From NCBI GenBank assembly GCA_030683995.1, contig JAUXPH010000057.1, positions 27,876 through 91,875 on the forward strand: DNA of 64,000 bases. The letters run 5' to 3'. This stretch comes from Lutibacter sp. (GTDB lineage: Bacteria; Bacteroidota; Bacteroidia; Flavobacteriales; Flavobacteriaceae). The notes under the pieces are model-generated. The model was given only the letters and a program-made list of their open reading frames with translations. It ran no database searches and had not been told where the DNA came from. The translations under genes and the position numbers were made by a program. Below, in pieces: positions 4,534 to 56,775 of this stretch (position 1 is the first letter of the stretch; every line of letters begins with the position of its first letter).

Positions 4534-4561
4534 AAATTTGGTTTTATAATTTTAAATATCT

Positions 4562-5095: not shown

Positions 5096-5214
5096 TTTTT
5101 ATTTAACATTTTTTAGGGGTGTTTTTTGTTAATAATGAAATTTATTGCGTAAATTCACACAATAATTAACGGAATACAACGTTCTTTAATCACCAACTAA
5201 AAACCTATTAACTT

Positions 5215-33467: not shown

Positions 33468-33500
33468 TTTATTGAAAATAAACGTAGTTAAATATAAGTA

Positions 33501-33528
33501 AAAATACTCAATATTAGGTATTTACATT
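33501..33528 (+). promoter_or_regulatory. 28-bp box, copy 1 (putative LuxR-family operator)
   Basis: AAAATACTCAATATTAGGTATTTACATT, 33 bp upstream of the LuxR start and identical to four copies at 53.8-56.7 kb. Confidence 0.85.
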
Positions 33529-33941
33529 AAATAATTTTGATTCAAAACTTAATTGGGAAATTTTTTAAAAGTTAAGCGCATTCAATAAATGACAATTACA
33601 GTCGAAAAAATAAGACGCATTCAGCATTGGGTATTGCTTATAATGCAAGGATAAACTGAACCATTAAAGAAGCGCCATAGATTACAGGAAACCAACAGCC
33701 TTTGGGCTGCTAAAAATGCAAAGACAAAATAGTTTATCATTATAACAATAAAAGATTCCCTAATAATATTGGCAAATTAAGTCTTGAGAATTTTGAAAAT
33801 AAATGGTTAAAAAATCGAATTAATACTAAGCCAATTTTTACTATTTTTGATTACGATAAATTAACAGTAACCGGTCAACACTAATTAAGGAAATGCAAAA
33901 CAAATACCGGCAACCAAATTATACCAGATACCCAAGAAGCA

Positions 33942-34880
33942 ATGAAAAAAATATTAGTTACCGGAGGCGCCGGATTTATAGGATCTCATTTATGTGAACG
34001 ATTGCTGAAAGAAGGCAACGAAGTTATTTGTCTTGACAATTATTTTTCGAGCAACAAAAGCAACATCATTGGGTTGACTGCCAATCCGTATTTTGAATTG
34101 GTGCGGCACGACATCACGCAGCCTTACTTTGCCGAAGTGGATGAAATTTACAATTTAGCTTGTCCGGCAAGCCCTATTTACTACCAGCACGATCCCATAA
34201 AAACAATCCAAACTTCTGTGATGGGCGCCATCAATATGTTGGGTTTGGCAAAGCGGCTGAATGCAAAAATTTTGCAGGCAAGCACCAGTGAAGTATATGG
34301 TGATCCAATTGTTCATCCGCAAAAAGAAGATTATTGGGGCAATGTAAATCCAATTGGATTGCGCTCTTGTTACGATGAAGGAAAACGTTGTGCAGAGACT
34401 TTATTTATGGATTACCACCATCAAAATAAAGTGGCCATTAAAATTATACGCATATTTAACACCTACGGACCCAATATGAATGTGAACGACGGCAGGGTAG
34501 TGTCCAATTTTATTGTTCAGGCCTTAAAAGGCGAAAATATCACCATGTATGGCGATGGAATGCAAACACGTTCCTTTCAATATGTGGATGATTTGGTGGA
34601 AGGCATGGTACGCATGATGAATTCCGATCCGCAATTTTTGGGCCCGGTAAATCTGGGAAATCCCAACGAGTTTAGTATGTTGGAACTGGCAAAAACCATC
34701 ATCGATTTATCAGGAAGCGCCTCTAAAATTATTTTTATGCCTTTGCCAAAAGACGATCCAAAACAACGTCAGCCAAACATTGGACTTGCCAAAGAAAAGC
34801 TAAACGGCTGGGAACCTAAAGTTCAATTGAAAGAAGGACTTGTAAAAACGATTGCATATTTTGAGGGAATACTCAAGTAA
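33942..34880 (+). CDS. UDP-glucuronate decarboxylase (UDP-xylose synthase), extended SDR
   Basis: [38 protein letters not shown] and DDPKQRQP motifs. Confidence 0.93.
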
Positions 34881-35089
34881 AGTTGAAATTACGAAGACTG
34901 AAGACGGAAGTCGGGAACACTTGCAAACAATTAAAATACCAACAACCAGAAACACCATAAGGCTACTAAAAAAATAAATAAATTAAAATAATTCGCCTTT
35001 ATGTTTTTTGTAAGCTTTTAAAGTGTACTTTTGCACCCGATTTTAACCGATTTATAGATGGGCATCTGTAGATCATAATATTTACAGAA

Positions 35090-36955
35090 ATGTCGACATT
35101 TAAAGAACTAGGGCTTAACAGCCAAATTTTACAAGCATTAACTGATTTAGGGTATGAGAACCCAACTGAAATTCAGAAAAAAGCAATCCCTCAAGTATTA
35201 TCTTCCAAGCAAGATTTAAAAGCATTTGCGCAAACAGGCACAGGGAAAACTGCAGCTTTCAGTTTGCCAATTTTAGAGCAAATTGACGCTGAAAGTGGTG
35301 ATACCCAAGCAATCATTTTATCGCCAACACGTGAGTTGGCTTTGCAAATCGCCAATAACATCACCGATTTTTCAAAACATTTAAAAGGCGTTAAAACACT
35401 TGCCGTTTATGGCGGTGCCAGCATTGAAGACCAAGTCAGAAAACTAAATAAAGGCGTACAAATTATTGTTGGAACTCCGGGAAGAACGGTTGATTTGATC
35501 AACAGAAAGCAATTAAAACTTTCAAATCTTAAATGGCTTATTTTGGATGAAGCCGATGAGATGTTGAATATGGGTTTTAAAGATGAGTTGGATAAAATTT
35601 TGGCCGTTACGCCAAAAGAAAAACAAACATTGTTGTTTTCTGCAACGTTTCCAAAAGAAGTGGAAGGCATTGCTAAAGCTTATTTAAAAAATCCGATTGA
35701 AATCAGCGCCGGAGAAAAAAACAAAGGAACTGACCAGGTTTCTCATCAATATTATGTGGTTTCAGAAAGAAACAGGTACAATGCCATCAAAAGAATTGCT
35801 GACGTAAATCCTGATATATATTGCATCATTTTTTGCAGAACCAGAAGAGAAACACAAGAAGTTGCCGATAAATTAATCAGCGACGGATACAATGTTGATG
35901 CGCTTCACGGCGATTTGTCACAAGCGCAACGCGACAGTGTGATGGAAAAATTCCGAAGCAAAACGCTGCAAATATTGGTTGCTACGGATGTTGCCGCAAG
36001 GGGATTGGATGTAACGGATTTAACACACGTTATCAACCACAAACTTCCGGACCAGATTGAATCTTACACGCACCGTAGCGGCAGAACTGGCCGTGCAGGA
36101 AAAGAGGGAATTTCAATCGCTATTGTAACCGTTAGAGAAAAAAGCAAATTGCACCCAATTGAAAGATTGATCGGCAAAAAATTCATCAGCACCCCAATTC
36201 CTACAGGAAAAGAAATTTGTCAAAATCAATTGTTAAAATTGATTGACAAGGTTCAGGATATTCAGGTGAACGAGACTGAAATCAGTGATTTCTTACCTTC
36301 TATTTACGAGAAATTGAAAGATTTAGACCGTGAAGAACTGATTAAAAAGTTTGTTTCGATTGAATTCAATACTTTTTTAACCTACTATCAAAATGCACCT
36401 GATTTAAATGACAGCGAGCATATGAGAGGTGTTGACAGAAATTCTGATAGAGGAAGCAAACGAAGAGATGATGAAAATATGACGCGTTTCTTTATCAATA
36501 TTGGTAAAAAAGACAAATTAAATCCTGCCAGATTGATTGGTTTGATCAATGACCAAAGAATTGCCAAAAATATTGAAATCGGACAAATTGAAATTTTAGA
36601 CACTTTTTCTTTCTTTGAATTGGATAAAACCTATGAAAAAGAAACAATGAGCGCTTTTGAAGGAAATGATGTTGATTTTGAAGGAAGAAGCGTAAATGTT
36701 GAAATTACCACCAAACAACGTACCGGCCAAGCAAGAAGCGGCGGTGGATTTCGTGGAGGAGATAGAGACAGAGGTCCAAGAAAAAGAACCGGTGACAGCG
36801 ATAGAGGAAACGACAGAAAAAGATCTGGTGACGGTGACAGAAAACCTAAAACCGATTTTGGCGGATTTGGAAGAAAACGACCGGGTGCTCCAGGAACAAT
36901 CAGCAAAAGCACTTTTGGATCGGATCAAAATCCGAAAAGAAGAAAAAGAATATAA
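35090..36955 (+). CDS. deaD: DEAD-box RNA helicase (DeaD/CsdA-like, with DbpA-type RNA-binding domain)
   Basis: AQTGTGKT, PTRELA, LDEADEM, FSAT, ARGLD and HRSGRTGRAG motifs; R/G-rich tail; TACTTTTG -7 element at 35026. Confidence 0.92.
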   Translation: MSTFKELGLNSQILQALTDLGYENPTEIQKKAIPQVLSSKQDLKAFAQTGTGKTAAFSLPILEQIDAESGDTQAIILSPTRELALQIANNITDFSKHLKGVKTLAVYGGASIEDQVRKLNKGVQIIVGTPGRTVDLINRKQLKLSNLKWLILDEADEMLNMGFKDELDKILAVTPKEKQTLLFSATFPKEVEGIAKAYLKNPIEISAGEKNKGTDQVSHQYYVVSERNRYNAIKRIADVNPDIYCIIFCRTRRETQEVADKLISDGYNVDALHGDLSQAQRDSVMEKFRSKTLQILVATDVAARGLDVTDLTHVINHKLPDQIESYTHRSGRTGRAGKEGISIAIVTVREKSKLHPIERLIGKKFISTPIPTGKEICQNQLLKLIDKVQDIQVNETEISDFLPSIYEKLKDLDREELIKKFVSIEFNTFLTYYQNAPDLNDSEHMRGVDRNSDRGSKRRDDENMTRFFINIGKKDKLNPARLIGLINDQRIAKNIEIGQIEILDTFSFFELDKTYEKETMSAFEGNDVDFEGRSVNVEITTKQRTGQARSGGGFRGGDRDRGPRKRTGDSDRGNDRKRSGDGDRKPKTDFGGFGRKRPGAPGTISKSTFGSDQNPKRRKRI

Positions 36956-36957
36956 TT

Positions 36958-36985
36958 AAAAAAGCCGCGTTTAGCGGCTTTTTTT
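36958..36985. terminator. Bidirectional intrinsic terminator
   Basis: AAAAAAGCCGC-GTTTA-GCGGCTTTTTTT between convergent genes. Confidence 0.8.
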
Positions 36986-37017
36986 ATGTTCAATTGCGTG
37001 CAATACCCCAAGAATTT

Positions 37018-37905
37018 TTATTGAAATTGTTTGGCAATTTTCTCCGCTTTCCTTGATTCGGAATAATCGTAAAAACCTTCGCCCGATTTAATCCCCAGTT
37101 TGCCGGCTTGCACCATATTCACCAAAAGCGGACAAGGCGCATACTTCGGATTTTTAAAGCCGTTGTACATCACTTCCAAAATCGACAAACACACATCCAA
37201 CCCAATAAAATCAGCCAATTGTAATGGTCCCATTGGATGCGCCATTCCTAATTTCATCACCGTGTCAATTTCATAAACGCCGGCAACACCATTGTACAAA
37301 GTTTCTATGGCTTCGTTTAGCATAGGCATTAAAATTCGGTTGGCTACAAATCCGGGATAGTCATTGACTTCAACAGGCGTTTTTTGCAAGTTTTGCGAAA
37401 GTTCCATAATGGTTTTAGTCACTTCTTCAGAAGTGTTGTATCCTCTAATGATTTCAACCAATTTCATAATGGGCACCGGATTCATAAAGTGCATTCCTAT
37501 CACTTTTTCAGGTCGTTTTGTGACCGACGCAATTTTAGTGATTGAAATGGAAGAAGTGTTGGAAGCTAAAATGGCTTTTTCTGGTGCCTCTTCGTCAATT
37601 TGCTTGAATATTTTTAATTTTAAGTCCACATTTTCTGTGGCGGCTTCAACCACCAAATCCACATTTTTTACGCCTTCAGCAATAGAAGTGAATGTGGTGA
37701 TATTGGCCAAAGTTTGCGTTTTAATTTCGGCGGTGATGGTTCCTTTATCAACTAAACGATCCAGATTTTTAACAATGGTGGACAAACCGCGATCTATTGC
37801 TTCCTGTGAAATATCAATTAAATGTACTTGGTAATTATTTTGGGCGAAAACGTGGGCAATGCCATTTCCCATGGTTCCGGCGCCAATAACAGCTATATTT
37901 TTCAT
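37018..37905 (-). CDS. 3-hydroxybutyryl-CoA (3-hydroxyacyl-CoA) dehydrogenase
   Basis: GAGTMGNGIA, EAATEN, SNTSS, GMHFMNP and GFVANR motifs. Confidence 0.95.
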   Translation of the reverse strand: MKNIAVIGAGTMGNGIAHVFAQNNYQVHLIDISQEAIDRGLSTIVKNLDRLVDKGTITAEIKTQTLANITTFTSIAEGVKNVDLVVEAATENVDLKLKIFKQIDEEAPEKAILASNTSSISITKIASVTKRPEKVIGMHFMNPVPIMKLVEIIRGYNTSEEVTKTIMELSQNLQKTPVEVNDYPGFVANRILMPMLNEAIETLYNGVAGVYEIDTVMKLGMAHPMGPLQLADFIGLDVCLSILEVMYNGFKNPKYAPCPLLVNMVQAGKLGIKSGEGFYDYSESRKAEKIAKQFQ

Positions 37906-37961
37906 ATTCAATATTGGTTGTTTTTATAGATTATGCCTTTTCCCGCCAATGCGGAAGGTGA

Positions 37962-38738
37962 TTATATAATTAATTTCCCTTTTAAATAGGTAACAGCTTG
38001 TCCGCTCATTTCAACACGGTCATTTAAATACTCGCATTTTAAAATTCCAGTTCTTTTTGAAAGCTGAACAGCTTCCAGCTTTGTTTTATTGAGTTTTTTA
38101 GCCCAATACGGAATAAGCAAAGTATGCGCAGAACCTGTTACCGGATCTTCATTTACGCCAATCTTTGGTGCAAAAAATCGCGAAACAAAGTCGGCTGAAT
38201 CTCCTTTTGCAGTCACGCCAATTCCTAAATATTCCAATTGTGTCAATAAGTGGAAGTTTGGCGTTAAATTTTTAATTATTGCTTCACTTTCCAACAAAAC
38301 CAACAATTTCCATTTCCCCTTAAAAGTTTTTAAAACAGGAACATTTAACGCTTGTTTTAAAAGATCAGGCGTTTCAATTTCCACGATTTCTTCTGAAGGA
38401 AAATTTAAAGTGTACCAATCTCCATTTTTTGTAACAGTCAATTTGCCGCTTTTTGAATTGAATTTAAGCTGTTTTTCTTTGTAGTTTAATTCGCTGAAGA
38501 TAATATGTGCCGCAGCCAAAGTTGCATGGCCGCATAAATCGATTTCACAAGTTGGCGTATACCATTTTATGTCGAATGAATTTCCATTTTTTACGAAGAA
38601 AACAGTTTCTGATAAATTGTTTTCTTCAGCAATTGCTTGCATTAAGTCATCAGAAATCCATTTTTCCAACGGACAAACAGCAGCGGGGTTTCCTTTAAAA
38701 ACAGCATTGTTAAATGCGTCAACTTGGTAAATATCCAT
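37962..38738 (-). CDS. PhzF/DAP-epimerase-like isomerase
   Basis: QVDAF...GNPAAV, ENNLSETVF, DLCGHATLA and EDPVTGSAH motifs. Confidence 0.92.
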   Translation of the reverse strand: MDIYQVDAFNNAVFKGNPAAVCPLEKWISDDLMQAIAEENNLSETVFFVKNGNSFDIKWYTPTCEIDLCGHATLAAAHIIFSELNYKEKQLKFNSKSGKLTVTKNGDWYTLNFPSEEIVEIETPDLLKQALNVPVLKTFKGKWKLLVLLESEAIIKNLTPNFHLLTQLEYLGIGVTAKGDSADFVSRFFAPKIGVNEDPVTGSAHTLLIPYWAKKLNKTKLEAVQLSKRTGILKCEYLNDRVEMSGQAVTYLKGKLII

Positions 38739-38739
38739 A

Positions 38740-39699
38740 CTAAAAATCGTTAATGATCATTTGGGCAACACGAAGCGCTTCTGCGCCTTGTTCCAAAGTA
38801 ACAATTGGTGTTGTATTGTTTTTGATGGCATCGGCAAAAGTTTCCAGTTCATCTAAAATGGCATTGTTTGCTGCGATTTTCGGATTTTCAAAATAGATTT
38901 GCTTTTTTAAACCTTCCGCATTTTGTAAAATCATATCAAAATCGCCCGGAGTCTCAGGTGCATCTTTCATTCTGACCACTTCAGTTGCTTTTTCAAAGAA
39001 ATCAACAGCAATATAGGCATCACGCTGAAAAAATCGTGTTTTGCGCATGTTTTTTAAAGAAATTCTGCTGGCGGTTAAATTGGCCACGCATCCGTTTTCA
39101 AATTCAATGCGTGCATTCGCAATATCTGGCGTATCGCTCAAAATGGAAACGCCGCTGGCATTGATACTTTTTACTTTCGATTTCACCACGCTCAAAATAA
39201 TGTCGATGTCGTGAATCATTAAATCCAATACTACAGGAACATCTGTTCCTCTCGGATTGAATTCGGCCAAACGATGTGTTTCAATAAACATTGGATTGTG
39301 AATGGCGTCTTTAACCGCGGTAAAAGCCGGATTAAAGCGTTCAACGTGGCCAACCTGACCCTTTACGTTGTGTTTTTTCAAAAGTTCAATAAGAATTTCA
39401 GCTTCTTCAACCGTTTTGGTGATGGGTTTTTCAATAAAAACGTGTTTTCCTTTTTCTATGGCTTCTTTTGCACAGTCGAAATGAGAAAGTGTTGGCGTTA
39501 CAATGTCAATAACGTCAACGGCATCAATTAATTCCTGAATTGAATCAAAAGATTTGTAGCCAAATTCTTTTGCAACTTTTTCTGCGTTTTCTTTAATTGG
39601 GTCATAAAAACCGACCAATTCGTATTTATCTGATTGATTTATTAATTTTAAATGAATTTTTCCTAGATGTCCCGCACCTAAAACTCCTGCTTTCAGCAT
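38740..39699 (-). CDS. Gfo/Idh/MocA oxidoreductase
   Basis: GAGHLG, EKP, VGHVERFNP and DLMIHD motifs. Confidence 0.92.
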   Translation of the reverse strand: MLKAGVLGAGHLGKIHLKLINQSDKYELVGFYDPIKENAEKVAKEFGYKSFDSIQELIDAVDVIDIVTPTLSHFDCAKEAIEKGKHVFIEKPITKTVEEAEILIELLKKHNVKGQVGHVERFNPAFTAVKDAIHNPMFIETHRLAEFNPRGTDVPVVLDLMIHDIDIILSVVKSKVKSINASGVSILSDTPDIANARIEFENGCVANLTASRISLKNMRKTRFFQRDAYIAVDFFEKATEVVRMKDAPETPGDFDMILQNAEGLKKQIYFENPKIAANNAILDELETFADAIKNNTTPIVTLEQGAEALRVAQMIINDF

Positions 39700-39785
39700 A
39701 TTTAAAGTCGTTAATATTTATACAGGTAAAAGTACATTCTTTAGGCATTTATTCCTATTTTTAGGCATTCAAATTTTAGGGAATA

Positions 39786-40427
39786 GTGAAGGACACGCAC
39801 AAGCATAACGGGCTTAGAAATCAGCTGGTAAAGATAATTGCACAGAAAGGAATAACGGACAAAAATGTGTTGACTGCTATGGGAAATGTGCCCAGGCACT
39901 TGTTTATGGATTCAAGTTTTGCCGATTTTGCCTATCAGGATAAAGCATTTCCAATAGGTTCCGACCAAACCATTTCCCAACCTTATACGGTTGCTTTTCA
40001 GACTGAATTGCTGCAAATAAAAGAACATCACCAAATTTTGGAAATTGGCACAGGTTCGGGATACCAAACGGCTGTTTTACTGGAAATGGGCGCCAAAGTG
40101 TATACCATTGAACGGCAGCAGGAATTGTTCAAAAAAACAAAATTGTTTCTGCCAAAACTGGGCTACAAGCCTAAAAAAATAATTTTTGGCGATGGTTATA
40201 AAGGATTGCCGGAAAATGCGCCTTTTGACGGAATTATTGTAACTGCCGGGGCGCCTATTGTGCCAAAAGCTTTATTAAGTCAGTTAAAAATAGGAGGAAG
40301 GCTGGTGATTCCTGTGGGTGATAAAGAACAAATTATGACCTTATTTATTAGAACCAGCGAAAAAGATTTTGAAAAACACGAGTTGGGCAAATTTAAATTT
40401 GTGCCTATGCTGAATAAGAAAAATTAG
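39786..40427 (+). CDS. pcm: Protein-L-isoaspartate O-methyltransferase
   Basis: VPRHLF, QTISQPY, LEIGTGSGYQ and APFDGIIVTAG motifs; GTG start. Confidence 0.95.
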   Translation: MKDTHKHNGLRNQLVKIIAQKGITDKNVLTAMGNVPRHLFMDSSFADFAYQDKAFPIGSDQTISQPYTVAFQTELLQIKEHHQILEIGTGSGYQTAVLLEMGAKVYTIERQQELFKKTKLFLPKLGYKPKKIIFGDGYKGLPENAPFDGIIVTAGAPIVPKALLSQLKIGGRLVIPVGDKEQIMTLFIRTSEKDFEKHELGKFKFVPMLNKKN

Positions 40428-40432
40428 TTTAA

Positions 40433-40861
40433 TTACACCTTTACTTTGTACCAATATTGCGTTCTTCCCAACAAAGCAAAACCCAAATAACCGCGCACTT
40501 TTAGTTTGTTAGGCTCTTCTAAGGTTAGGTAGCATTTGTATTCTTTTCCTGTTTTTGGGTCAAGTATTTTTGCGCCATTCCATTCGTCACCGTCTTTTTT
40601 TAAGCCATCTATAACTATCAAACCTTTAAGTGGCTTGTTTTTATTGGCGCCTTTACAATTTTCGCAAACCCGATTTTCTTCGCTTTTTTCCAATAATTTT
40701 ACAATTTTCGCATATATTTTTCCTTCTGATTCGTAAATTTCAACAATGGATCTTTCTTTGCCTGTTTCATCGTCAATGGTTTTCCATTTTCCTGTAATTG
40801 ATTGAGAGAAACTATTAAAAGATAGCGATAAAATATAGATAAACAGTATGTATTTTTTCAT
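40433..40861 (-). CDS. DUF2147 family secreted protein
   Basis: GKWKTIDD, ILDPKTGKEY, LKVRGYLG and GRTQYW motifs. Confidence 0.9.
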   Translation of the reverse strand: MKKYILFIYILSLSFNSFSQSITGKWKTIDDETGKERSIVEIYESEGKIYAKIVKLLEKSEENRVCENCKGANKNKPLKGLIVIDGLKKDGDEWNGAKILDPKTGKEYKCYLTLEEPNKLKVRGYLGFALLGRTQYWYKVKV

Positions 40862-40868
40862 AATAGTA

Positions 40869-41396
40869 TTAAAATAATTTAGCGTCAAATTGAAAATCCC
40901 ATTTCCCCTGAACTTTCAGCACTTGTTCAATCACATCACGGACACAGCCGTTTCCGCCTTTTTTTTGAGAAATATAGCTGGAAATATGCTGAATTTCGGG
41001 AACTGCGTCTTTCGGACAACAAGGCAATCCAACAATTTTCATTACTTGATAATCGGGAATATCATCACCCATATATAAAACTTCCTCTGGTTTAATGCCG
41101 TAAAGCACCATATAATCTTCAAACTGATCTGTTTTATGGTGCGTTCCCAAATAGATATCAGTAATTCCCAAAGCCATAAAGCGAGCGCGCACGCCTTCGT
41201 TGGTTCCGCCGGAAATAATGCAAACACGATAGCCGGCAGTTAAGGCTGTTTTAAGGGCATATCCATCTTTAATATTCATTTCACGCAACAATTCACCGGT
41301 TTCGGTGACTCTTACATTTCCGTTGGTAAGTACGCCGTCAACATCAAAAATAAAGGTGGTGATCTGGGGCATTATTTCTTTATAACTTTTTTCCAT
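40869..41396 (-). CDS. kdsC: KDO-8-phosphate phosphatase (HAD family)
   Basis: DVDGVLT, NIKDG, YMGDDIPD and GGNGCVR motifs. Confidence 0.9.
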   Translation of the reverse strand: MEKSYKEIMPQITTFIFDVDGVLTNGNVRVTETGELLREMNIKDGYALKTALTAGYRVCIISGGTNEGVRARFMALGITDIYLGTHHKTDQFEDYMVLYGIKPEEVLYMGDDIPDYQVMKIVGLPCCPKDAVPEIQHISSYISQKKGGNGCVRDVIEQVLKVQGKWDFQFDAKLF

Positions 41397-42141
41397 AAAT
41401 ATTGTAAATAGATTTGGTGAGCAATGTATAAATTTCTTGTTGATTTTTATTGAGCATTGCTATATGTTTTTCAATGGTTTTGGTGTCGTTTCTTTTTGCG
41501 GGTCCGGTTTGTGCTTCAAGCGGCGACAAAGTAGTAATTTTATTTGCCGTTTCAAGTATTAATGGCAACAAAATTTCAAAAGGAACCTTATTTTGCTCGC
41601 AAATTTCATGTCCGATGTGGTACAAATGATTCACAAAATTATTGACAAAAACAGCAGCAACGTGCAAACTTTTTCGTTGATCTGAATGAATGCGGTAACA
41701 ATTTTTCGACATTGATTTTGCCAATGTTTCCAACAAAAATAAATCTTTTTCAGTTTCGGCTTCAATGCAAATTGGCACAGATGAAAAATCGATTTTTCTT
41801 TCTTTGGAAAAGCTTTGCAACAAATAAAACACGCCTTTATTGGAAATGGATTTAATCTCGTCCATTGCCATACTTCCTGAAGTATGCACCACCAATTTGT
41901 TTTTAAAATTTAAGGCCGAAGAAAGCTCAGAAATGGCATTGTCGGAAACCGCAAGGATGTAAATATCGGCATCTTTCAATTCCGATAATTTATTTGTGAT
42001 TAAAATGTTGTTTTTAAAGCAGTTAATATTTTTTAAACTTCTATTGTAAACCTGAACAACATTTACCGCACTGTTTTGCAACAATGCATTTGTTAAATGA
42101 TAGGCCACATTTCCGCCGCCAAGGATTACGATATTAATCAT
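41380..42141 (-). CDS. Rossmann-like plus DUF2520 domain protein
   Basis: GGGNVA, VHTSGS, LHVAAVFVNNF and QTGPAKRND motifs. Confidence 0.88.
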   Translation of the reverse strand: MINIVILGGGNVAYHLTNALLQNSAVNVVQVYNRSLKNINCFKNNILITNKLSELKDADIYILAVSDNAISELSSALNFKNKLVVHTSGSMAMDEIKSISNKGVFYLLQSFSKERKIDFSSVPICIEAETEKDLFLLETLAKSMSKNCYRIHSDQRKSLHVAAVFVNNFVNHLYHIGHEICEQNKVPFEILLPLILETANKITTLSPLEAQTGPAKRNDTKTIEKHIAMLNKNQQEIYTLLTKSIYNIYGKKL

Positions 42142-42240
42142 ATTGCGAATGTAAATAACAATTGACGATTGATTATAAATAATTAACAATAAATAGAGTT
42201 AAAAATAACTCTTTCCAATTAATAAACCACCCTTTCTGGG

Positions 42241-45452: not shown

Positions 45453-45494
45453 TGTTCAAAATGGTTTCTCAAAGATATAAAAATTAGGAGTTAC

Positions 45495-46229: not shown

Positions 46230-46230
46230 T

Positions 46231-46902: not shown

Positions 46903-46929
46903 TCGGTAAAAGTAAGCATTTTTGTTTTA

Positions 46930-47010
46930 AAATTGTTTAACTGTTTATTTGTTTAATCGTTGAACAGTTTGATTCACTGTTTATTTGCCCAATCGATTTA
47001 CAAATGATTG
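46930..47010 (+). repeat. Degenerate 8-mer repeats
   Basis: AATTGTTT AACTGTTT ATTTGTTT AATCGTTG AACAGTTT ... CACTGTTT. Confidence 0.55.
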
Positions 47011-47121
47011 ATTTAATCTTGATTTAACTGAACATATAACTTTTATTGCCAATGCGCAGGCTGGCCTTATCGCTAAAAACAGCTACCAGCTGTTTTTTTT
47101 AACGCTCTGTCCCCCTTCGGG

Positions 47122-47256
47122 GCAATGTCATTAAGTTAAGCGATATACTCCTTTTTTTGTCCTTACGAGGTACGAGGAATCTCATAATGATAGCCGGTTT
47201 GATGCGATTCCTCCTTTGTCGGAATGACAAATATTCCCTTAACTTAATGACATTGC
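47122..47256. mobile_element. 135-bp MITE with 19-bp TIRs and an 8-bp target duplication
   Basis: GCAATGTCATTAAGTTAAG ... CTTAACTTAATGACATTGC, flanked by CCTTCGGG at 47114-47121 and 47257-47264. Confidence 0.85.
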
Positions 47257-47275
47257 CCTTCGGGGGCTAGGGGGC

Positions 47276-49684: not shown

Positions 49685-49876
49685 TGTAACGTAATAAACA
49701 GACTCAAATTTTGGTTAAAATATTTAAGATGCAAAACAAACCATCTTAAATAAATGCTACTATATAGACGTACAAAAATACACATTGTTACACTATATAA
49801 AACTTTTTTTAAATACACTTATATTTTAAGTTAGGATTACTACATTTGTTGATATTTACAAAAACCATTATCTCTA

Positions 49877-51070
49877 ATGAATTTACACGAATATCAAGGA
49901 AAAGAATTACTAAGTAGTTTTGGCGTAAAAATACAGCGCGGCATTGTTGCCGATAACCATTTAAAAGCGGTGGAAGCGGCAAAGCAATTGGCTGTAGAAA
50001 CCGGAACTGGCTGGTGGGTTGTTAAAGCACAAATTCATGCGGGTGGACGAGGAAAAGGCGGTGGCGTGAAATTGGCTAAAAGTTTAAAAGACGTTGAATC
50101 AATTTCTGAAAGTATTATCGGGATGATGTTGATCACACCCCAAACTCCACCTCAAGGTAAAAAAGTGCATCAGGTTTTGGTTGCTGAAGACGTATATTAT
50201 CCTGGAGCGAATGAACCTGAAGAATATTATATGTCGGTTTTGTTGAACAGAGCAACCGGAAAAAATATGATTATGTATTCTACAGAAGGCGGAATGGATA
50301 TTGAAACGGTTGCCGAAAAAACACCTCACTTAATTTTTACCGAAGAAATGGATCCATTATTGGGATTGCAAGCTTTTCAGGCGCGTAAAATTGCCTTTAA
50401 TTTGGGATTGTCGGGAAATGCGTTAAAAGAAATGATAAAGTTTGTGACTTCTTTATATACTGCTTTTGTTCAGTCTGATGCCACTTTATTTGAAATAAAC
50501 CCAGTGTTAAAAACATCGGATGATAAAATTTTAGCGGTTGATTCAAAAGTTGTTTTGGATGATAACGCTTTATTTCGCCATCAAGATTTAGCGGTACTTA
50601 GAGATTTTCGTGAAGAAAGTCCGATTGAGGTTGAAGCCAACGCTGCAGGATTGAATTATGTTGATTTAGACGGAAATGTGGGTTGTATGGTAAACGGAGC
50701 CGGTTTGGCGATGAGCACCATGGATTTAATCAAACAATCGGGCGGAGAACCGGCAAACTTTTTGGATGTTGGCGGTACGGCAGATGCAAAACGTGTTGAG
50801 ACAGCCTTCAGAATTATTTTAAAAGACAAGAACGTAAAAGCGATATTGGTCAATATTTTTGGCGGAATTGTACGTTGCGACCGTGTGGCGCAAGGCGTTA
50901 TTGATGCTTATAAAAATATGGGCGATGCCATTAACATACCAATTATTGTGCGTTTACAAGGCACCAACGCCAAAGAAGCGCAAGAGCTTTTAGACAATAG
51001 CGGATTGGATTTAATTTCAGCAACTGAATTTCAGGAAGCTGCGGATAAAGTGCAAAAAGTATTGGCATAA
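49877..51070 (+). CDS. sucC: Succinyl-CoA ligase (ADP-forming) beta subunit
   Basis: MNLHEYQGK, KAQIHAGGRGKGGGV, GCMVNGAGLAM, NFLDVGG and NIFGGIVRCD motifs; TACATTTG -7 element at 49841. Confidence 0.97.
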   Translation: MNLHEYQGKELLSSFGVKIQRGIVADNHLKAVEAAKQLAVETGTGWWVVKAQIHAGGRGKGGGVKLAKSLKDVESISESIIGMMLITPQTPPQGKKVHQVLVAEDVYYPGANEPEEYYMSVLLNRATGKNMIMYSTEGGMDIETVAEKTPHLIFTEEMDPLLGLQAFQARKIAFNLGLSGNALKEMIKFVTSLYTAFVQSDATLFEINPVLKTSDDKILAVDSKVVLDDNALFRHQDLAVLRDFREESPIEVEANAAGLNYVDLDGNVGCMVNGAGLAMSTMDLIKQSGGEPANFLDVGGTADAKRVETAFRIILKDKNVKAILVNIFGGIVRCDRVAQGVIDAYKNMGDAINIPIIVRLQGTNAKEAQELLDNSGLDLISATEFQEAADKVQKVLA

Positions 51071-51089
51071 CCGAGCATAAAATACAATC

Positions 51090-51124
51090 AAAAAAAGCTG
51101 ATGATCAATTCATTAGCTTTTTTT
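51090..51124 (+). terminator. sucC terminator
   Basis: AAAAAAAGCTGATG...CATTAGCTTTTTTT. Confidence 0.75.
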
Positions 51125-51137
51125 GGTCTAAAAAATG

Positions 51138-51209
51138 GCTAGCGCGAGCTTACGGCTCATGACTGCGCTAACAAGGTAACAAAAGCACGAGCGAGACGCT
51201 CGCGCCAGC
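51138..51209. repeat. REP-like inverted doublet
   Basis: GCTAGCGCGAGCTTACGGCTCATG ... CACGAGCGAGACGCTCGCGCCAGC; imperfect 24-bp inverted pair, each unit with a GAGC-n5-GCTC hairpin. Confidence 0.65.
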
Positions 51210-51319
51210 AGATGGATTCTGTAACAAGCCTACCGGTTGGATAAGAGGGTTCTAATACTTTAAGGCATAAAAAAAACACTTCAATGGAAGTGCTTTTTTA
51301 TTTTATCGAAGCCAATTGA

Positions 51320-51700
51320 TTAAATATCTTCAAAATTTACGTCGGTAAAACTTTCTGATCCCGATACGGTTTCTTCAGTTTCTTCGGTTCCGTCAGATGG
51401 TCTTTTAAAATCTTTTTGGTGACGTTCAGAAATTACTTCTTCACCTTTTTCATTTAAAATATAATTTGTTGCTTCTTTTAACATATCATTAAACTCTACA
51501 AAATCTTCTTTGTATAAATAAATTTTATGCTTTTTGTAATGGAAAGATCCATCGTCGTGTGTGAATTTTTTACTTTCGGTAATAGTTAAGTAATAATCTT
51601 CGGCTTTTGTTGCTCTTACATCAAAAAAGTAAGTTCTTCTTCCTGCTCTAAGAACCTGAGAGAATATCTCTTCTTGTTCTAAATGTTCATTGTCATTCAT
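51320..51700 (-). CDS. DUF3276 (Pur-alpha-like) protein
   Basis: IFSQVLRAGRRTYFFDV, YLTITESKK and HKIYLYKEDF motifs. Confidence 0.9.
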   Translation of the reverse strand: MNDNEHLEQEEIFSQVLRAGRRTYFFDVRATKAEDYYLTITESKKFTHDDGSFHYKKHKIYLYKEDFVEFNDMLKEATNYILNEKGEEVISERHQKDFKRPSDGTEETEETVSGSESFTDVNFEDI

Positions 51701-51779
51701 ATATAACTCTCTATTTAATTAATCTTTTTATTAGATATTGACACAAATCTATAAAATAATTTGACTTTTTACACTATTT

Positions 51780-53534
51780 TCAAATTTCTTTTTCCAAAAG
51801 TTGCTGTTCATAAAGTTCTTTATAGTAGCCATCAATTTTAATCAACTCAGTATGTGAACCTTGCTGAATTACTTTCCCTTTTTCCAATACCAAAATGCTG
51901 TCGGCATTTTTTACCGATGAAATTCTGTGGCTTACAATAATGGTGGTTTTATTTTGGCTTATTTTAAACAAGTTGTTGAGTATAATTTCTTCTGTTTCTG
52001 TATCCACTGCGGATAAGCAATCATCAAAAATTAAAATTTCAGGTTCTTTAATCAGCGCACGGGCAATGGAAACCCGCTGTTTTTGTCCGCCCGACAAGGT
52101 AACGCCTCTTTCTCCTACAAAGGTGTTGTAACCTTCGTTAAACTCGATGATATTGTGGTGAATGTAGGCATCTTTGGCAGCTTGCTCAATTTTTTCGTCA
52201 GAAGCAGCTTCCTCGCCAAATTTGATATTGTTTTTTATGGTATCAGAAAACAAAAAAGCTTCTTGCGGAACAAAACCGATGCTTTGTCGCAGATTGTCTA
52301 AATTGAGTTGTTCAATAGGTTTTTGGTCGATTAAAATCACCCCCGATTTTACATCATACAAACGGGCAATTAAACTGATAAGCGTTGTTTTTCCCGATCC
52401 TGTATTTCCTAAAACACCGAGTGTTTTCCCTTTTTCAAGTTTGAAATTGATGTGCTGCAGCGCTTCAATATTGGTGTCGTCATAGGTAAACGACACATTT
52501 TTAAATTCGATTTCACCTTCAATTTTTGATGGTTTATCGTTGTTGTTAACAATTTCAGGTTCCTGTTTTAAAAACTCGTTGATCCGTATTTGCGATGCTT
52601 CAGCCTCCTGAATGATGGAAGTTACCCAGCCCACAACGGCAACCGGCCAAGTAAGCATATTGATGTACATAATAAATTCGGCAATAACGCCCAATTTAAT
52701 GGTGCCTTCAATATAGCGCAATCCGCCGACATAAATAACCAAAATATTGCTTAAACCAATCAATAAAATCATGGATGGAAAAAACAAGGCTTGAACTTTA
52801 AACAAGCTGATGTTTTTTTCTTTGGCTTTATCGGACAAGTGTTCGAATTCATCCATTGCTTTTTCTTCAACGCCATACGATTTTAAAATGCTGATTCCAG
52901 AAAAAGTTTCTTGGGCGCTTGAAGTTAATTTCGATAAATATTGTTGTACAACGGTGCTTCGTTGGTTAATGATATTGCTTAAATAATAAATCAATACCGA
53001 TAAAATAGGCAAGGGCAAAAGCGTGTAGTTGGTTAAAGTGACATCAATATGGTACATTTTAATAATAGCCACGGAAAATAACACCAGCATATTGATGCTG
53101 TACATAATGGCCGGCCCGGCGTACATACGCACTTTGCTCACATCTTCGGTTATGCGATTCATTAAATCGCCAGTTCGGTTTTTTTTGTAAAAATTTAAGG
53201 ATAAAAGCTGGTATTGCCGGTAAATTTCATTTTTTAAGTCGAATTCAATCAACCGCGACATCACAATAATGGTTTGACGCATTAAAAAAGTGAAAAACCC
53301 CGAAAGCAGGGCTGCCGCAACAATTAAAAGGATGTTATAAAGCAATTCTGATTTCACCACGGCCAAATCGGTAACAATACCATTTCTGTAATCTTCGGCA
53401 ACATTTATCGATTCCCTAATAATTTGGGGAACCTGCAATGCCAATATTTTAGACGCAATGGTGATAATGATGCCTAATAAAAGTCGGTATTTATATTTTA
53501 AAAAGTATTTGTTTAGGTATGATAAAGCTTTCAT
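51780..53534 (-). CDS. ABC exporter, fused permease and ATPase (MdlA/MsbA-like)
   Basis: Six-TM domain (TGDLMNR), GNTGSGKT, LSGGQKQR and DDCLSAVD motifs. Confidence 0.95.
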   Translation of the reverse strand: MKALSYLNKYFLKYKYRLLLGIIITIASKILALQVPQIIRESINVAEDYRNGIVTDLAVVKSELLYNILLIVAAALLSGFFTFLMRQTIIVMSRLIEFDLKNEIYRQYQLLSLNFYKKNRTGDLMNRITEDVSKVRMYAGPAIMYSINMLVLFSVAIIKMYHIDVTLTNYTLLPLPILSVLIYYLSNIINQRSTVVQQYLSKLTSSAQETFSGISILKSYGVEEKAMDEFEHLSDKAKEKNISLFKVQALFFPSMILLIGLSNILVIYVGGLRYIEGTIKLGVIAEFIMYINMLTWPVAVVGWVTSIIQEAEASQIRINEFLKQEPEIVNNNDKPSKIEGEIEFKNVSFTYDDTNIEALQHINFKLEKGKTLGVLGNTGSGKTTLISLIARLYDVKSGVILIDQKPIEQLNLDNLRQSIGFVPQEAFLFSDTIKNNIKFGEEAASDEKIEQAAKDAYIHHNIIEFNEGYNTFVGERGVTLSGGQKQRVSIARALIKEPEILIFDDCLSAVDTETEEIILNNLFKISQNKTTIIVSHRISSVKNADSILVLEKGKVIQQGSHTELIKIDGYYKELYEQQLLEKEI

Positions 53535-53849
53535 AAGGAATTTAAATGCAATGAATTTTGTAAGATGCGAAGATACGGGAAAAAAAAATTAAAAAGAGGA
53601 AGACAGAAGTCCGAAATTGAATAAGGCAATAGAAACTGACCAACACTAATCTGGGAAGATTATGTCATAAAACAGCTTGTCAATTTAAATGAGAAAAACA
53701 AAACAAAGTATTCAGGAGTAACTCAGCAAAGGGCCAATATTTATTAAAATGATTCTTTGAATTCGAATCATTTAATCTTATATGTGACTAACATTCATTT
53801 CCAATTTCAATAAACATTTAGTGAAATTAATTTCAATAATTACTGATGA

Positions 53850-53900
53850 AAAATACTCAATATTAGGTATTTACATTCGTAAATTTTGGTTGTAACTTTA
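53850..53900 (+). promoter_or_regulatory. 28-bp box, copy 2, plus weak sigma70 promoter
   Basis: Box at 53850-53877; TTTA (53870-53873), 19-nt spacer, TAACTTTA (53893-53900). Confidence 0.85.
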
Positions 53901-53993
53901 ATTGGGAATTTTATAAACGCTAAATGTATTTAAGTTTTGTAATAGTAATGATGTTTTATGAATAGAATAGGTAACCTTTAAATTTTTAAAATT

Positions 53994-54617
53994 ATGAAAA
54001 AGCTTAGTTTTTTAGCCGTAATGGCTTTGTTAATGATGTTCGGTTGTTCTAAAGAAGAAATGACAAATACCGATCAAGAACTGTTTTCTGTTGAGAAAAA
54101 TAACCAACCTAGTATTGGTGCGAAAAGGGGGTTAGGTAATCCAGATGCATTTGGGAGTGAAATAAAGTTCTATTTTAAATCTGATATTACTTCGATTCCA
54201 ATAGATTGTCTAAAACCATACAAGTTTCCTATAACTGGTAAAGTTGAAGGAAAAATTCATGGATATGGTATTATTAATCCAAATTTGAGTTTTTACAATG
54301 TGATTAATTGTGAAAAAGTTACCGATGTAAGAGAATTATGGGGTGAAAAAGATAAATATAATATAGAAATAACAGCAACGGTATTTATAACTGTTAATGA
54401 TTCTTTCAATATTCATCTTAATGGGAACTTTTATCCTTGGTTTGTGAATCCTCCTTATGGATATCCATGTGGTAGTTTTGAGCAAATATCTTGCACCACT
54501 TTGGGTGGAAAAGGTAAATTTGAAGATTTTAATAATATCGATTTTGATGTAAGAGGTGGATTGAGGGGAATTAACTTAGAAACTGGCGAAATGATATTAT
54601 CAATTTTTAAACTCTAA
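53994..54617 (+). CDS. Lipoprotein paralogue 1 (L1), unknown family
   Basis: Lipobox FGC18 followed by SKEE; shares GxIxGYGxIN, GNxYP and GINLxTGE motifs with L2-L4. Confidence 0.88.
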   Translation: MKKLSFLAVMALLMMFGCSKEEMTNTDQELFSVEKNNQPSIGAKRGLGNPDAFGSEIKFYFKSDITSIPIDCLKPYKFPITGKVEGKIHGYGIINPNLSFYNVINCEKVTDVRELWGEKDKYNIEITATVFITVNDSFNIHLNGNFYPWFVNPPYGYPCGSFEQISCTTLGGKGKFEDFNNIDFDVRGGLRGINLETGEMILSIFKL

Positions 54618-54649
54618 AATCTTTAAATTTAATTCAATAAAAAATAATG

Positions 54650-54700
54650 AAAATACTCAATATTAGGTATTTACATTCGTAAAATTAGGTTGTAACTTTA
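54650..54700 (+). promoter_or_regulatory. 28-bp box, copy 3, plus weak sigma70 promoter
   Basis: Box at 54650-54677; TTTA, 19-nt spacer, TAACTTTA (54693-54700). Confidence 0.85.
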
Positions 54701-54762
54701 TTTAGAAGTTTTTTTCAGACAATTAAAACTATTATGTTTTGTGATATAAATCCTTTTTTCGG

Positions 54763-54804
54763 AATAGAATTAGTAACATTTAAATTATTAAAATAATGAA
54801 ATGA
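54763..54804 (+). pseudogene. Remnant 5' leader and start (ATG AAA TGA) of a lost lipoprotein paralogue
   Basis: 54763-54801 matches the L3 leader (56743-56781) at 38 of 39 bases, then hits an immediate stop. Confidence 0.65.
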
Positions 54805-54910
54805 ACAAACTAAAAAGAGCACTAACACCGATGTTATATTAATTGTATTCAAATTTGTAAGAAATTAAATTGATAAATAAAATAAAAAAATAACAGTAAA
54901 TATTTTACCT

Positions 54911-55714
54911 ATGAAAACACCAGCTTATTTTATTCTCATCATGTTGATATTATGCTCAACAACTACAAATGCCCAATTTCTTAAAGACCTTAAAAAGAGG
55001 GTGGAGGAGAGATTAGTAGAAACCGTAATCGAAAAAACTGCGGAAAAGGTCTCCCAAAAAGCCAGTAATTCTATGGATAGAGCTTTTGACCTCGATTTAA
55101 AAACCAATAATCAAGGGAAAAAAATTTCTCCTCAAAATTTACCGGGCTCATTTGATTTTGATTATAAATATCGTTTATCAATCACCAATGGAAAAGGTGC
55201 AATGAACTTGGATTATTTATTGAAATCAGAGGCGAATTATCTTGGCATTAAGGCAGATATGGATTCCGAAATATTAATGATTATGGATAGAGGTCAGAAT
55301 ATAAACTATATGTTTATGAATACTGTAGATGATAAAATTTGTACTTCCACGGAGCTTATCATAAATAACGAGCCCTGTAATTTAAGTGATTACACGGTTA
55401 CAGAGTTACCTAACAAAACATTTTTAAGGTATGATTGCAAGGGCCTGAGAATTGAAAACAGTGATTATGTTTTTACTATGTACTTCGCCAATGAAACACC
55501 GATAAGTATTAATGATGTTTTTAAAACAGATTCAAGTAGATTTCCAACGATAATACAAAGCCAGTTACAAGGTAGCGAAAATGCGCTTATAATGTATATG
55601 GAAATGAAAGATAAGAAAAATAAAGGGAAAAAAAGCAACTCGGGAATTATGGAATGTACTTTGCTTGAACCTATTAGCTTTACTTTTAACACAAGTGGGT
55701 ATCAATTTATGTAA
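54911..55714 (+). CDS. Secreted protein, DUF4412/GLPGLI-like
   Basis: Sec signal followed by AQFLKDLKKRVEE helical N-terminus and KTFLRYDCKG motif; unrelated to L1-L4. Confidence 0.7.
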   Translation: MKTPAYFILIMLILCSTTTNAQFLKDLKKRVEERLVETVIEKTAEKVSQKASNSMDRAFDLDLKTNNQGKKISPQNLPGSFDFDYKYRLSITNGKGAMNLDYLLKSEANYLGIKADMDSEILMIMDRGQNINYMFMNTVDDKICTSTELIINNEPCNLSDYTVTELPNKTFLRYDCKGLRIENSDYVFTMYFANETPISINDVFKTDSSRFPTIIQSQLQGSENALIMYMEMKDKKNKGKKSNSGIMECTLLEPISFTFNTSGYQFM

Positions 55715-55818
55715 ATATATAAAAATCTCTTAAATACAATTTCAAAACTTTTGGTGACTTATTATTGTTATGTGTTTAAAATTTTTAAAAAAGTAAAAAC
55801 AACAATGAAACAACTTAA

Positions 55819-55869
55819 AAAATACTCAATATTAGGTATTTACATTCATAAATTTTGGATGTAACTTTA
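55819..55869 (+). promoter_or_regulatory. 28-bp box, copy 4, plus weak sigma70 promoter
   Basis: Box at 55819-55846; TTTA, 19-nt spacer, TAACTTTA (55862-55869). Confidence 0.85.
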
Positions 55870-55897
55870 ATATGCAATTTCTTAAATTTTTAAAATC

Positions 55898-56593
55898 ATG
55901 AAAAAGCTTAGTTTTTTAGCCGTTTTGGCTTTGTTAATTATGTTCGGTTGCTCAAAAGAAGAAATGACAAATACCGAACAAGAACTGTTTTCTGTAGAGA
56001 AAAATAACCAATCTATTTTCAATAATGACCAAAGTGGCAAATCAGTAAGTACAGTTTCTGAAATTAGGTTCGTGAGTAATTCTATTGAAAATGGTAACTT
56101 TATTGAGGATGGATGCCTTATATCTCCATATAATCCCCCACTGATAAGAAGATTACTTGAAGAAGGAATGTTTAGTGGTTCTATTGAAGGTTATGGAAAC
56201 ATCAACCCAAAAATTAGTAAGTACCAAATAGTTGGTTGTGATATAGCTCTTAATGATGGTGGAATAAATAGGCAAATTGAACCTGAATATGTAGAAGCTA
56301 ATATGTATAAATTAACAATAGTAGGAAAAATTTCGTTAAGTCCAAGAGATTATTTTACCATCCAAATTTCTGGAAATGTATATCCTATTAGTTATACAGA
56401 AGCTGCAGGAGGACCACACGCGTGGATAAATTTTGATGGAGGAAATTTTGAAGGGATTGGAACAGTTAATACTGTATCTGGAAAACTTAATGGTTTGTTA
56501 TATAAAGAATTCCGTGTTTACGGTTTAATTTGGAGAGGAATAAACGATTTTAGAAACGGTAAAATGTATTTAGATATCACTGATCAGTATTAA
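55898..56593 (+). CDS. Lipoprotein paralogue 2 (L2)
   Basis: First 38 aa nearly identical to L1; lipobox FGC followed by SKEE. Confidence 0.88.
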   Translation: MKKLSFLAVLALLIMFGCSKEEMTNTEQELFSVEKNNQSIFNNDQSGKSVSTVSEIRFVSNSIENGNFIEDGCLISPYNPPLIRRLLEEGMFSGSIEGYGNINPKISKYQIVGCDIALNDGGINRQIEPEYVEANMYKLTIVGKISLSPRDYFTIQISGNVYPISYTEAAGGPHAWINFDGGNFEGIGTVNTVSGKLNGLLYKEFRVYGLIWRGINDFRNGKMYLDITDQY

Positions 56594-56627
56594 TAAGTGA
56601 ACAAAATTAATTTCAATCATCTTATGA

Positions 56628-56678
56628 AAAATACTCAATATTAGGTATTTACATTTATAAATTTTTGTTATAAATTTA
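56628..56678 (+). promoter_or_regulatory. 28-bp box, copy 5, plus weak sigma70 promoter
   Basis: Box at 56628-56655; TTTA, 19-nt spacer, TAAATTTA (56671-56678). Confidence 0.85.
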
Positions 56679-56775
56679 ATAAGTAAGGAATTTTTTTAAA
56701 TGATTTAGTAATAAAGTTTTAATATAATAATCTTGTTTTGTAAATAGAATTAGTAACATTTAAATTATTAAAATT

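Follow-up and report, generated by a model that had tools for sequence, protein, structure and literature searches.

Why does one 28-nucleotide (nt) sequence stand unchanged beside a regulator gene and, some 20 kb away, at the head of four units of a lipoprotein array, and which protein reads it? The locus lies in a 64,000-nt window (contig C21, positions 27876-91875) of a 3.08-Mb, 71-contig Lutibacter genome, from a marine flavobacterium (family Flavobacteriaceae); the occurrence of a 6S-Flavo RNA in the window is consistent with this placement. Our analysis suggests that the repeated boxes are probably the DNA site of the neighboring PAS-LuxR regulator, serving both as its operator and as the -33 region of the promoter module that it would control.

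Five identical boxes within a promoter-like unit

The 28-mer AAAATACTCAATATTAGGTATTTACATT was found on the plus strand at 33501, 53850, 54650, 55819, and 56628 with no mismatch, and no additional copy was detected in the window when up to three mismatches were allowed (shuffled expectation, 0). At the same tolerance, the 22-mer core was found in the 3.08-Mb genome only at these five sites (reversed control, 0). The five identical repeats reported earlier from the sequence alone are thus real and unique in the genome. The boxes and their associated elements are as follows.

33501-33528, plus strand: box copy 1 (dyad 33504-33521), the ancestral regulator-proximal copy of the candidate operator, starting 33 nt from the regulator ATG (33467)
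33544-33551, plus strand: decayed outward -7 slot of copy 1, with AAAACTTA in place of TAACTTTA
53850-53877, plus strand: box copy 2 (dyad 53853-53870; -7 box TAACTTTA at 53893-53900), heading the lipoprotein gene lp1
54650-54677, plus strand: box copy 3 (dyad 54653-54670; -7 box at 54693-54700), whose leader runs into a remnant ATG AAA TGA at 54796-54804
55819-55846, plus strand: box copy 4 (dyad 55822-55839; -7 box at 55862-55869), with a short leader, heading lp2
56628-56655, plus strand: box copy 5 (dyad 56631-56648; -7 box TAAATTTA at 56671-56678), heading lp3 and lp4

Copies 2 to 5 each head a unit, as had been proposed, namely lp1, the remnant start codon followed by a gene for a 267-amino acid (aa) protein, lp2, and the pair lp3 and lp4. 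Direct reading of the 22-bp dyad AAATACTCAATATTAGGTATTT confirmed that 18 of its 22 positions equal the reverse complement. Within it, the inverted heptamers TACTCAA and TACCTAA are separated by 2 bp (TACTCAA-TA-TTAGGTA) and each agree with TACYYMT at six of seven positions, which upholds the 7-2-7 arrangement assigned to the box. The similarity also extends past the 28-mer, on one side only, with about 45 nt on the 3' side being 70 to 90% alike, including an almost invariant TAACTTTA, and the DNA on the 5' side at background identity (about 35%).

The complete unit consists, in order, of AAA, the 18-bp dyad ATACTCAATATTAGGTAT, TTACATT, a variable spacer of 15 nt, and TAACTTTA (TAAATTTA in copy 5). 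A -33-like TTTA follows the dyad, and the sigma-A-type -7 box TAACTTTA lies exactly 22 nt past it. When compared with the Bacteroidota sigma-A promoter (TTTG-like -33 and TAnnTTTG -7 elements), the arrangement TTTA-N19-TAACTTTA matches at three of four and seven of eight positions, respectively, and is invariant across genomes. The flavobacterial -7 box TAnnTTTG is placed at -12 to -5 (PMC9723704); if the transcription start sites obey this rule, the dyad would span about -52 to -35 and be centered near -43. The outward promoter of copy 1 has most likely decayed and would drive nothing. A scan of the array for promoters and terminators of the Escherichia coli type gave no enrichment over shuffled sequences, and the apparent terminators were dismissed, being located inside the signal-peptide coding region.

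A PAS-LuxR regulator with a fixed upstream layout

Copy 1 lies next to the following two features.

32691-33467, minus strand: PAS-LuxR one-component regulator of 258 aa, with a PAS_3 domain at residues 61-154 and a GerE/LuxR helix-turn-helix (HTH) at residues 198-249
33489-33496, minus strand: candidate -7 box for transcription of the regulator itself, reading TATATTTA on that strand and separated from the dyad by 7 nt

The domain assignment and the distance of 33 nt agree with the earlier description of a PAS plus LuxR-HTH protein that has no receiver. Both domains scored above their Pfam cut-offs (PF08447, PAS_3, 29.4 versus 25.6 bits; PF00196, GerE HTH, 44.3 versus 23.5 bits, E-value 1.3e-11), and neither a receiver nor an autoinducer-binding domain (PF03472) was detected in the protein by Pfam or NCBIfam scans. 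Response-regulator models matched only residues 195-258, and SdiA and the PA1136-family model matched only the HTH, far under their cut-offs. The sequence matches of the regulator in the PDB include the HTH domains of GerE, FixJ, and VraR, the best match being 3clo_A (residues 83-247, E-value 4e-6). This protein is likewise of 258 aa, and the aligned region runs from the sensor core into the HTH; the entry is from structural genomics and its listed name, 'Transcriptional regulator', gives no function. We know of no operator or regulon for 3clo.

Orthologues of the regulator were found at 55 to 92% identity. The upstream DNA was read for orthologues of 55 to 69% identity from other Lutibacter species and for a paralogue of 57% identity on contig C62 of the same genome; the relatives examined were Lutibacter G008, G023, G006, G029, G018, G032, and UBA8495, the C62 paralogue, Robiginitalea, Hyunsoonleella, and Algibacter. 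The inner part of the layout, in the Lutibacter relatives, the C62 paralogue, and Robiginitalea, runs from the regulator ATG through about 20 to 30 nt to a -7 box facing the regulator and, after 7 nt, to a dyad of the form ATACCY-N6-RGGTAT. Outward of the dyad follow exactly 22 nt, a TAnnTTT[GA] box, 230 to 470 nt, and a gene for a secreted protein or lipoprotein. The full layout is present in the Lutibacter species and in Robiginitalea (57% identity), and Hyunsoonleella and Algibacter keep the outward half. A related dyad, ATAC-N10-GTAT, occurs upstream of a Chitinophagaceae homologue of 32% identity. The remaining intergenic DNA around the layout is not conserved among the relatives. The slot facing the regulator carries TAnnTTT[GA] at the same position in all orthologues and would serve the regulator's own promoter.

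Two types of dyad were distinguished: (i) type A (ATACCT...AGGTAT), in G008 and G023 and, in imperfect form, in the window genome; and (ii) type B (ATACCC...GGGTAT), in G006, G029, G018, G032, and C62. The strict dyad is rare (0 to 5 per genome, near the reversed control), and G006, G008, G018, and G023 each have only 1 to 3 strict dyads in the whole genome, one of which precedes the regulator. When the window genome was searched for a less strict dyad with a -7 box 22 nt after it, only the four array copies, the C62 site, and three unrelated places were returned. The conserved layout amounts to a phylogenetic footprint, which ties the dyad to this regulator family and implies a two-faced promoter common to the regulator and its cargo. 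The association of the box with the regulator and the lipoproteins, as drawn by the sequence-only reading, is strengthened by these data, as a dyad of the same form stands at the same distances in every close orthologue examined and the identical box recurs in genomes with the lipoproteins.

The C62 paralogue (L037:236-1033, minus strand) has a type-B dyad of its own, TTACCCAATTTAGGGTAT, and 22 nt further on a perfect TATGTTTG box, behind which lies a gene for a 378-aa secreted protein; the genome would therefore hold two parallel regulator/operator pairs with different boxes. A residue of the recognition helix, Thr or Ala (xTHKKN versus xAHKKN), was considered as a correlate of dyad type A or B and was rejected, because Robiginitalea has Thr together with ATACCG...CGGGTAT. 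Among other cargo, a type-A dyad in G018 (ATACCTACTATTAGGTAT, 22 nt, then TAAATTTG; contig C35, locus L009, 1223-1520) precedes a gene for a 70-aa LuxR protein consisting of the HTH only and, after it, a gene for a lipoprotein that exceeds 387 aa; the cluster holds three other LuxR-type genes. The first cargo gene of G032 likewise encodes an HTH-only LuxR protein (81 aa).

Co-occurrence of regulator, box, and lipoproteins, and the origin of the 20-kb gap

The lipoprotein family was absent from 60 relatives and was found in other Lutibacter assemblies at 42 to 85% identity. In L094/L095, L096/L097, L099-L101, L108, and L112, array and regulator gene are immediate neighbors, divergently oriented in the first three of these groups, with the identical box in the intergenic region common to both. 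The outer flanks of this adjacent state are those of the window; in the first three groups they comprise UvrA-like, extracytoplasmic function (ECF) sigma factor, HhH-GPD, and peroxiredoxin genes on the left, and TonB-dependent receptor and M23 peptidase genes on the right. Eight contigs were matched when Joint Genome Institute (JGI) metagenomes were scanned for the exact 24-mer; in seven of the eight, the box is adjoined by the regulator (85 to 92% identity), lipoprotein homologues, or both, and both arrangements are represented. Genomes retaining box and lipoproteins in the absence of the regulator would have spoken against the link; instead, the regulator is directly adjacent in most such contigs.

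Between regulator and array, the window has the following block.

33576-53825, no strand assigned: a stretch of about 20.2 kb carrying ordinary chromosomal genes (epimerase, DEAD-box helicase ... DUF3276, ABC transporter)

The block is of normal composition. Synteny with the adjacent-state contigs by blastn extends from 27000 to about 33575 (ends at about 33570-33580) and resumes in the array. The split arrangement was found in one lineage, comprising the window, G069, L092 (Lutibacter sp. BRH_c52), L107, and L110; two array boxes are 725 bp apart in G069, as in L092. Since the regulator elsewhere adjoins the array within the same outer flanks, the 20-kb gap is a lineage-specific rearrangement. 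By this comparison, the ancestral state is a compact divergent pair of regulator, box, and lipoprotein array, and the split regulon of the sequence-only reading is a derived condition and not a feature of design.

Several observations were made on these contigs. The G069 regulator was at one point taken for a pseudogene; the apparent breakage corresponds to masked N stretches, which leave the gene readable only in part. In L108 (JGI Ga0316629_10000367, 832-5157), a three-gene array is bracketed by two minus-strand PAS-LuxR genes, of which the one at the box end shows 87% identity and the one at the far end 72%. In the window, 360 nt (33580-33941) separate box copy 1 from the epimerase gene, and this DNA is 97% identical to G069, above the identity of the neighboring genes; it holds a CAGCC-TTTG-GGCTG hairpin and, near 33843, a perfect TATTTTTG -7 box, probably that of the epimerase gene.

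Conservation of the box

Conservation was measured as the minority-base fraction over 13 box copies from five genomes. The fraction was 0.007 for the dyad, 0.014 for the whole 28-mer, 0.038 for the -7 slot, 0.154 for the spacer, and 0.28 to 0.34 for the flanks; the only changes in the dyad were two single substitutions, both in second copies (L096_b and L099_b). The near-invariance of the dyad against a variable spacer and flanks points to selection rather than recent duplication, in agreement with the earlier proposal of selection on the site and with its own check, that flanks as conserved as the box would indicate duplication.

The two faces of the copy beside the regulator behave differently. 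All four split-state genomes retain the dyad of this copy, with AAAACTTA in the outward slot and a shifted spacer, and the outward -7 slot is TAACTTTA in all five adjacent-state genomes. This comparison amounts to a natural experiment in which the two faces of the predicted operator come apart, with the outward promoter decaying only where the cargo has been lost. As the dyad is kept beside the regulator alone and the outward promoter is kept only with cargo, duplication or conversion by itself is insufficient to explain the pattern.

A model for the switch and the sign of control

From this geometry, we infer that a dimer of the regulator would bind the dyad ATACTCAA-TA-TTAGGTAT through its GerE-type HTH, contacting two NarL-like heptamers in the 7-2-7 arrangement. 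In the array, the dyad would be centered at about -43 of a weak sigma-A promoter (TTTA, 19 nt, TAACTTTA), the position of a class II activator, and a regulator with its PAS domain in the active state would most likely switch on the whole set of lp1, the captured 267-aa gene, lp2, and lp3-lp4. In front of the regulator gene, the dyad would lie between the -33 and -7 elements (-37 to -20, center about -28), and its occupancy most likely limits transcription of the regulator; such negative autoregulation is suggested because a dyad inside the regulator's own core promoter would hinder RNA polymerase. The PAS domain presumably sets DNA binding in response to a ligand or physical cue. Historically, a compact unit with the box repeated inside the array came first, and in this lineage a rearrangement of about 20 kb then parted the regulator from the array.

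Activation of the array promoters by the regulator appears moderately probable. It is favored because the site near -43, the classic class II position, abuts a -33/-7 pair that is kept below consensus in the cargo-bearing copies. TTTA and TAACTTTA are retained in 23 such copies (some of the loci probably being from the same genomes), and sub-consensus elements of this kind are typical of activator-dependent promoters. Characterized PAS-LuxR regulators are also mainly described as activators (PMC9774167, PMC9394381).

Several findings weigh against this model or parts of it. Contact of the dyad with the -33 position is equally in keeping with repression and with class II activation. The outward -7 boxes of the type-B relatives, located at 22 nt, equal the consensus TAnnTTTG, as expected of repressed rather than activator-dependent promoters. 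The five copies agree at all 28 positions, even in the central 6 bp and the non-palindromic half; this uniformity is above that of typical transcription factor sites and could stem in part from gene conversion among array modules. Finally, in L105 (JGI Ga0160457_1000005, 622 kb), the exact 24-mer at 1695-1718 lies 24 nt upstream of the gene for a different, 637-aa lipoprotein, and neither a PAS-LuxR nor an lp homologue was found within the 10 kb fetched.

The first two of these findings lead to the most serious alternative, in which the same regulator acts on the same operator as a repressor of both divergent promoters. The ligand-free dimer would occupy the dyad, obstructing the -33 region of the outward promoters and the core of the regulator's promoter, and a ligand would release it, in the style of a TetR-type pair or an EsaR-type LuxR protein. 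The dyad abuts or overlaps the -33-like TTTA/TTTG as well as sitting inside the regulator's own core promoter, and with TTTG directly after the dyad in G006 and perfect -7 boxes in type B, these promoters look strong unaided. Set against the sub-consensus elements, the center near -43, and the precedent of the characterized relatives, repression is a real but less probable outcome than activation.

Other readers and other roles for the box

The box could instead be read by a different DNA-binding protein encoded elsewhere, its position beside the PAS-LuxR gene being a coincidence or reflecting control of that gene by the other factor. An ECF sigma factor gene is located 2.3 kb away (30573-31157), and L105 has the box with no regulator nearby. 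However, the dyad follows the PAS-LuxR gene over at least four genera at fixed distances while the neighbors change, and its half-sites fit the TACYYMT heptamer and the 7-2-7 spacing of GerE-type HTH dimers. The ECF sigma factor itself was rejected as the reader of the box, as its gene is not conserved beside the orthologues and the conserved downstream element is a sigma-A-type TAnnTTT[GA] rather than an ECF-type -10. An independent reader is thus improbable.

A recombination system that uses the direct repeats as crossover sites to reshuffle or remove lipoprotein cassettes is still less credible. The arrays vary in size and order between genomes (2 to 5 genes), copy 3 is a cassette head that lacks its gene, and box modules bound the 20-kb block. 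Counter to this idea, no recombinase or invertase gene was found near the array in any genome examined, all repeats are direct, the module has the anatomy of a promoter at fixed spacing, and ordinary homologous recombination between 70-nt modules suffices to account for the variation.

The weakest explanation, that the box is functionless and its copies are identical through recent duplication of promoters with their genes or through gene conversion, draws on the location of four copies within a tandem paralogue array and on the nearly identical 5' coding ends of lp1 and lp2, which show that exchange between units happens, and it can be set aside because the paralogous proteins are just 30 to 42% identical, the dyad is invariant beside 5' DNA at background identity and a 15-nt 3' spacer that differs in 15% of cells, the dyad is unchanged in other genomes, where the flanking genes show 80 to 93% DNA identity, and distant orthologues have related dyads at the corresponding position.

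Returning to the PAS-LuxR regulator as the reader of the box, we also considered whether the unit of about 70 nt (operator, -33, spacer, and -7) is a portable regulatory cassette. Recombination between copies might expand, contract, and re-order the array and recruit unrelated secreted proteins, such as the 267-aa protein at copy 3 and the glycosidase-like lipoprotein in L105. This extension is tentative and, on balance, unlikely. If true, it would mean that one PAS-sensed signal switches a rapidly changing set of surface proteins, and the PAS-LuxR family of the Flavobacteriaceae, with its rigid two-faced promoter, would have a general and so far unrecognized role in controlling the cell-surface composition of marine and sediment Bacteroidota.

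Comparison with known regulators

The NarL and NarP sites of E. coli have the form TACYYMT-NN-AKRRGTA in a 7-2-7 arrangement, and NarL, a response regulator, has a receiver and is phosphorylated. The present heptamers share the inverted orientation and the 2-bp gap, and both proteins use a GerE-type HTH; unlike NarL, the regulator here has a PAS domain and no receiver and is thus not a NarL-type response regulator. LuxR activates at the lux box from the class II position of -42.5. The present system is similar in having a dyad of about 20 bp that is predicted to be centered near -42/-43 and to overlap the -35/-33 element, and an HTH protein that is not accompanied by a partner synthase. It has no autoinducer-binding domain and no evident link to quorum sensing, and is not a LuxR protein of the acyl-homoserine lactone (AHL) type. 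Many LuxR solos of Photorhabdus have a PAS-type sensor in place of the AHL domain (PAS4-LuxR; PMC4235431); the present regulator differs from LuxR and from these solos in its PAS_3 subtype and in the promoter type of the Bacteroidota.

The closest parallel, judged by architecture and not by sequence relatedness, is with the PAS-LuxR regulators of Streptomyces (PimM, PteF, AmphRIV, NysRIV, and CfaR), which act on a 16-bp palindrome in the -35 region of several cluster promoters (PMC9774167, PMC9394381). Common to both are a one-component protein with an N-terminal PAS domain and a C-terminal LuxR/GerE HTH, a palindromic operator (here predicted) in the -35 region, and identical boxes at several promoters of a cluster. 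The differences include (i) the operator, ATACTCAATATTAGGTAT or ATACCY-N6-RGGTAT here versus CTVGGGAWWTCCCBAG, which places the regulator outside the PimM subfamily; (ii) its length, 18 to 22 bp versus 16 bp; (iii) the phylum and the sigma-factor promoter type; (iv) the cargo, surface lipoproteins rather than antibiotic biosynthesis; and (v) the sharing of the operator with the regulator's divergent promoter at fixed spacing, for which we found no report in Streptomyces.

No description of a PAS-LuxR system was found when the literature on Bacteroidetes and Flavobacteriaceae was searched. The earlier statement that no such system had been described stands only for this subfamily of the Bacteroidota with its operator and cargo, because regulators of the same kind, PAS-LuxR proteins with palindromic operators in the -35 region, are known from Streptomyces (PMC9774167). 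The proposed system would be a well-supported but ordinary gene switch and introduces no new principle of regulation. What it offers is a precise candidate regulator, a predicted operator (ATACCY-N6-RGGTAT), and a promoter geometry, with a motif that can be used to annotate the regulon in other genera. To our knowledge, very few pairs of transcription factor and operator are known in the Flavobacteriaceae, and most surface lipoproteins in this family have no known regulation.

The lipoprotein array and other cargo

The genes of the array are the following.

53994-54617, plus strand: lipoprotein lp1, 207 aa, lipobox FGC followed by SKEE
54911-55714, plus strand: secreted 267-aa protein unrelated to the lp family, downstream of box 3, with weak similarity to DUF4412 under the Pfam cut-off
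55898-56593, plus strand: lipoprotein lp2, 231 aa, its DNA 93% identical to the first array gene of L094
56776-57390, plus strand: lipoprotein lp3, 204 aa, downstream of box 5
57417-58079, plus strand: lipoprotein lp4, 220 aa, with no box of its own, 26 nt after lp3

Presumably lp4 is co-transcribed with lp3. The ATG AAA TGA after box 3 is the relic of a lipoprotein start codon. The four lipoproteins, which diverge from one another to the degree given above, all have a lipobox Cys followed by S/A-K-(D/E)2 (FGC-SKEE, FGC-AKDE, FSC-SKDE). K-(D/E)2 was defined in Capnocytophaga as a surface-export signal of lipoproteins (PMC5080379), and lp1 to lp4 are accordingly predicted to be surface exposed.

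Neither Pfam nor NCBIfam matched lp1 to lp4 to any family. An AlphaFold2 model of lp4 based on a 22-sequence alignment (mean predicted local distance difference test [pLDDT] score of 74) has an all-beta body at residues 58-219 and a disordered linker of about 35 residues after the lipidated Cys, with residues 1-54 under a pLDDT of 50. When this model was compared with the PDB by Foldseek, no match was found at an E-value of 0.001 or less, the best being 3g7g (E-value 0.05, template modeling score 0.34 to 0.46).

The signal peptide and first 20 or so mature residues are almost identical between lp1 (53994-54110) and lp2 (55898-56014), with bodies about 40% identical, which suggests that array units have exchanged their 5' ends or that the export region is strongly constrained. 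A conserved leader element, AATAGAATTAGTAACATTTAAAT..., lies about 15 to 40 nt before the lipoprotein start codons (53955-53993, 54757-54795, and 56737-56775 in the window; L094:8943-8996 and L096:9941-10003 elsewhere). It also precedes array genes that have no box in other genomes, and copy 4 is without most of it; the element might act in translation initiation or as an internal promoter. In L105, the 637-aa lipoprotein looks like a glycoside hydrolase by sequence, with no family-library scan behind this assignment, and the opposite gene encodes a 382-aa membrane protein with histidine-box motifs that is desaturase-like by eye. An Rfam scan of the whole window gave no match at the boxes or leaders and returned only a 6S-Flavo RNA at 63286-63390 (plus strand, 94.5 bits) and one tRNA gene at 26095-26168 (plus strand).

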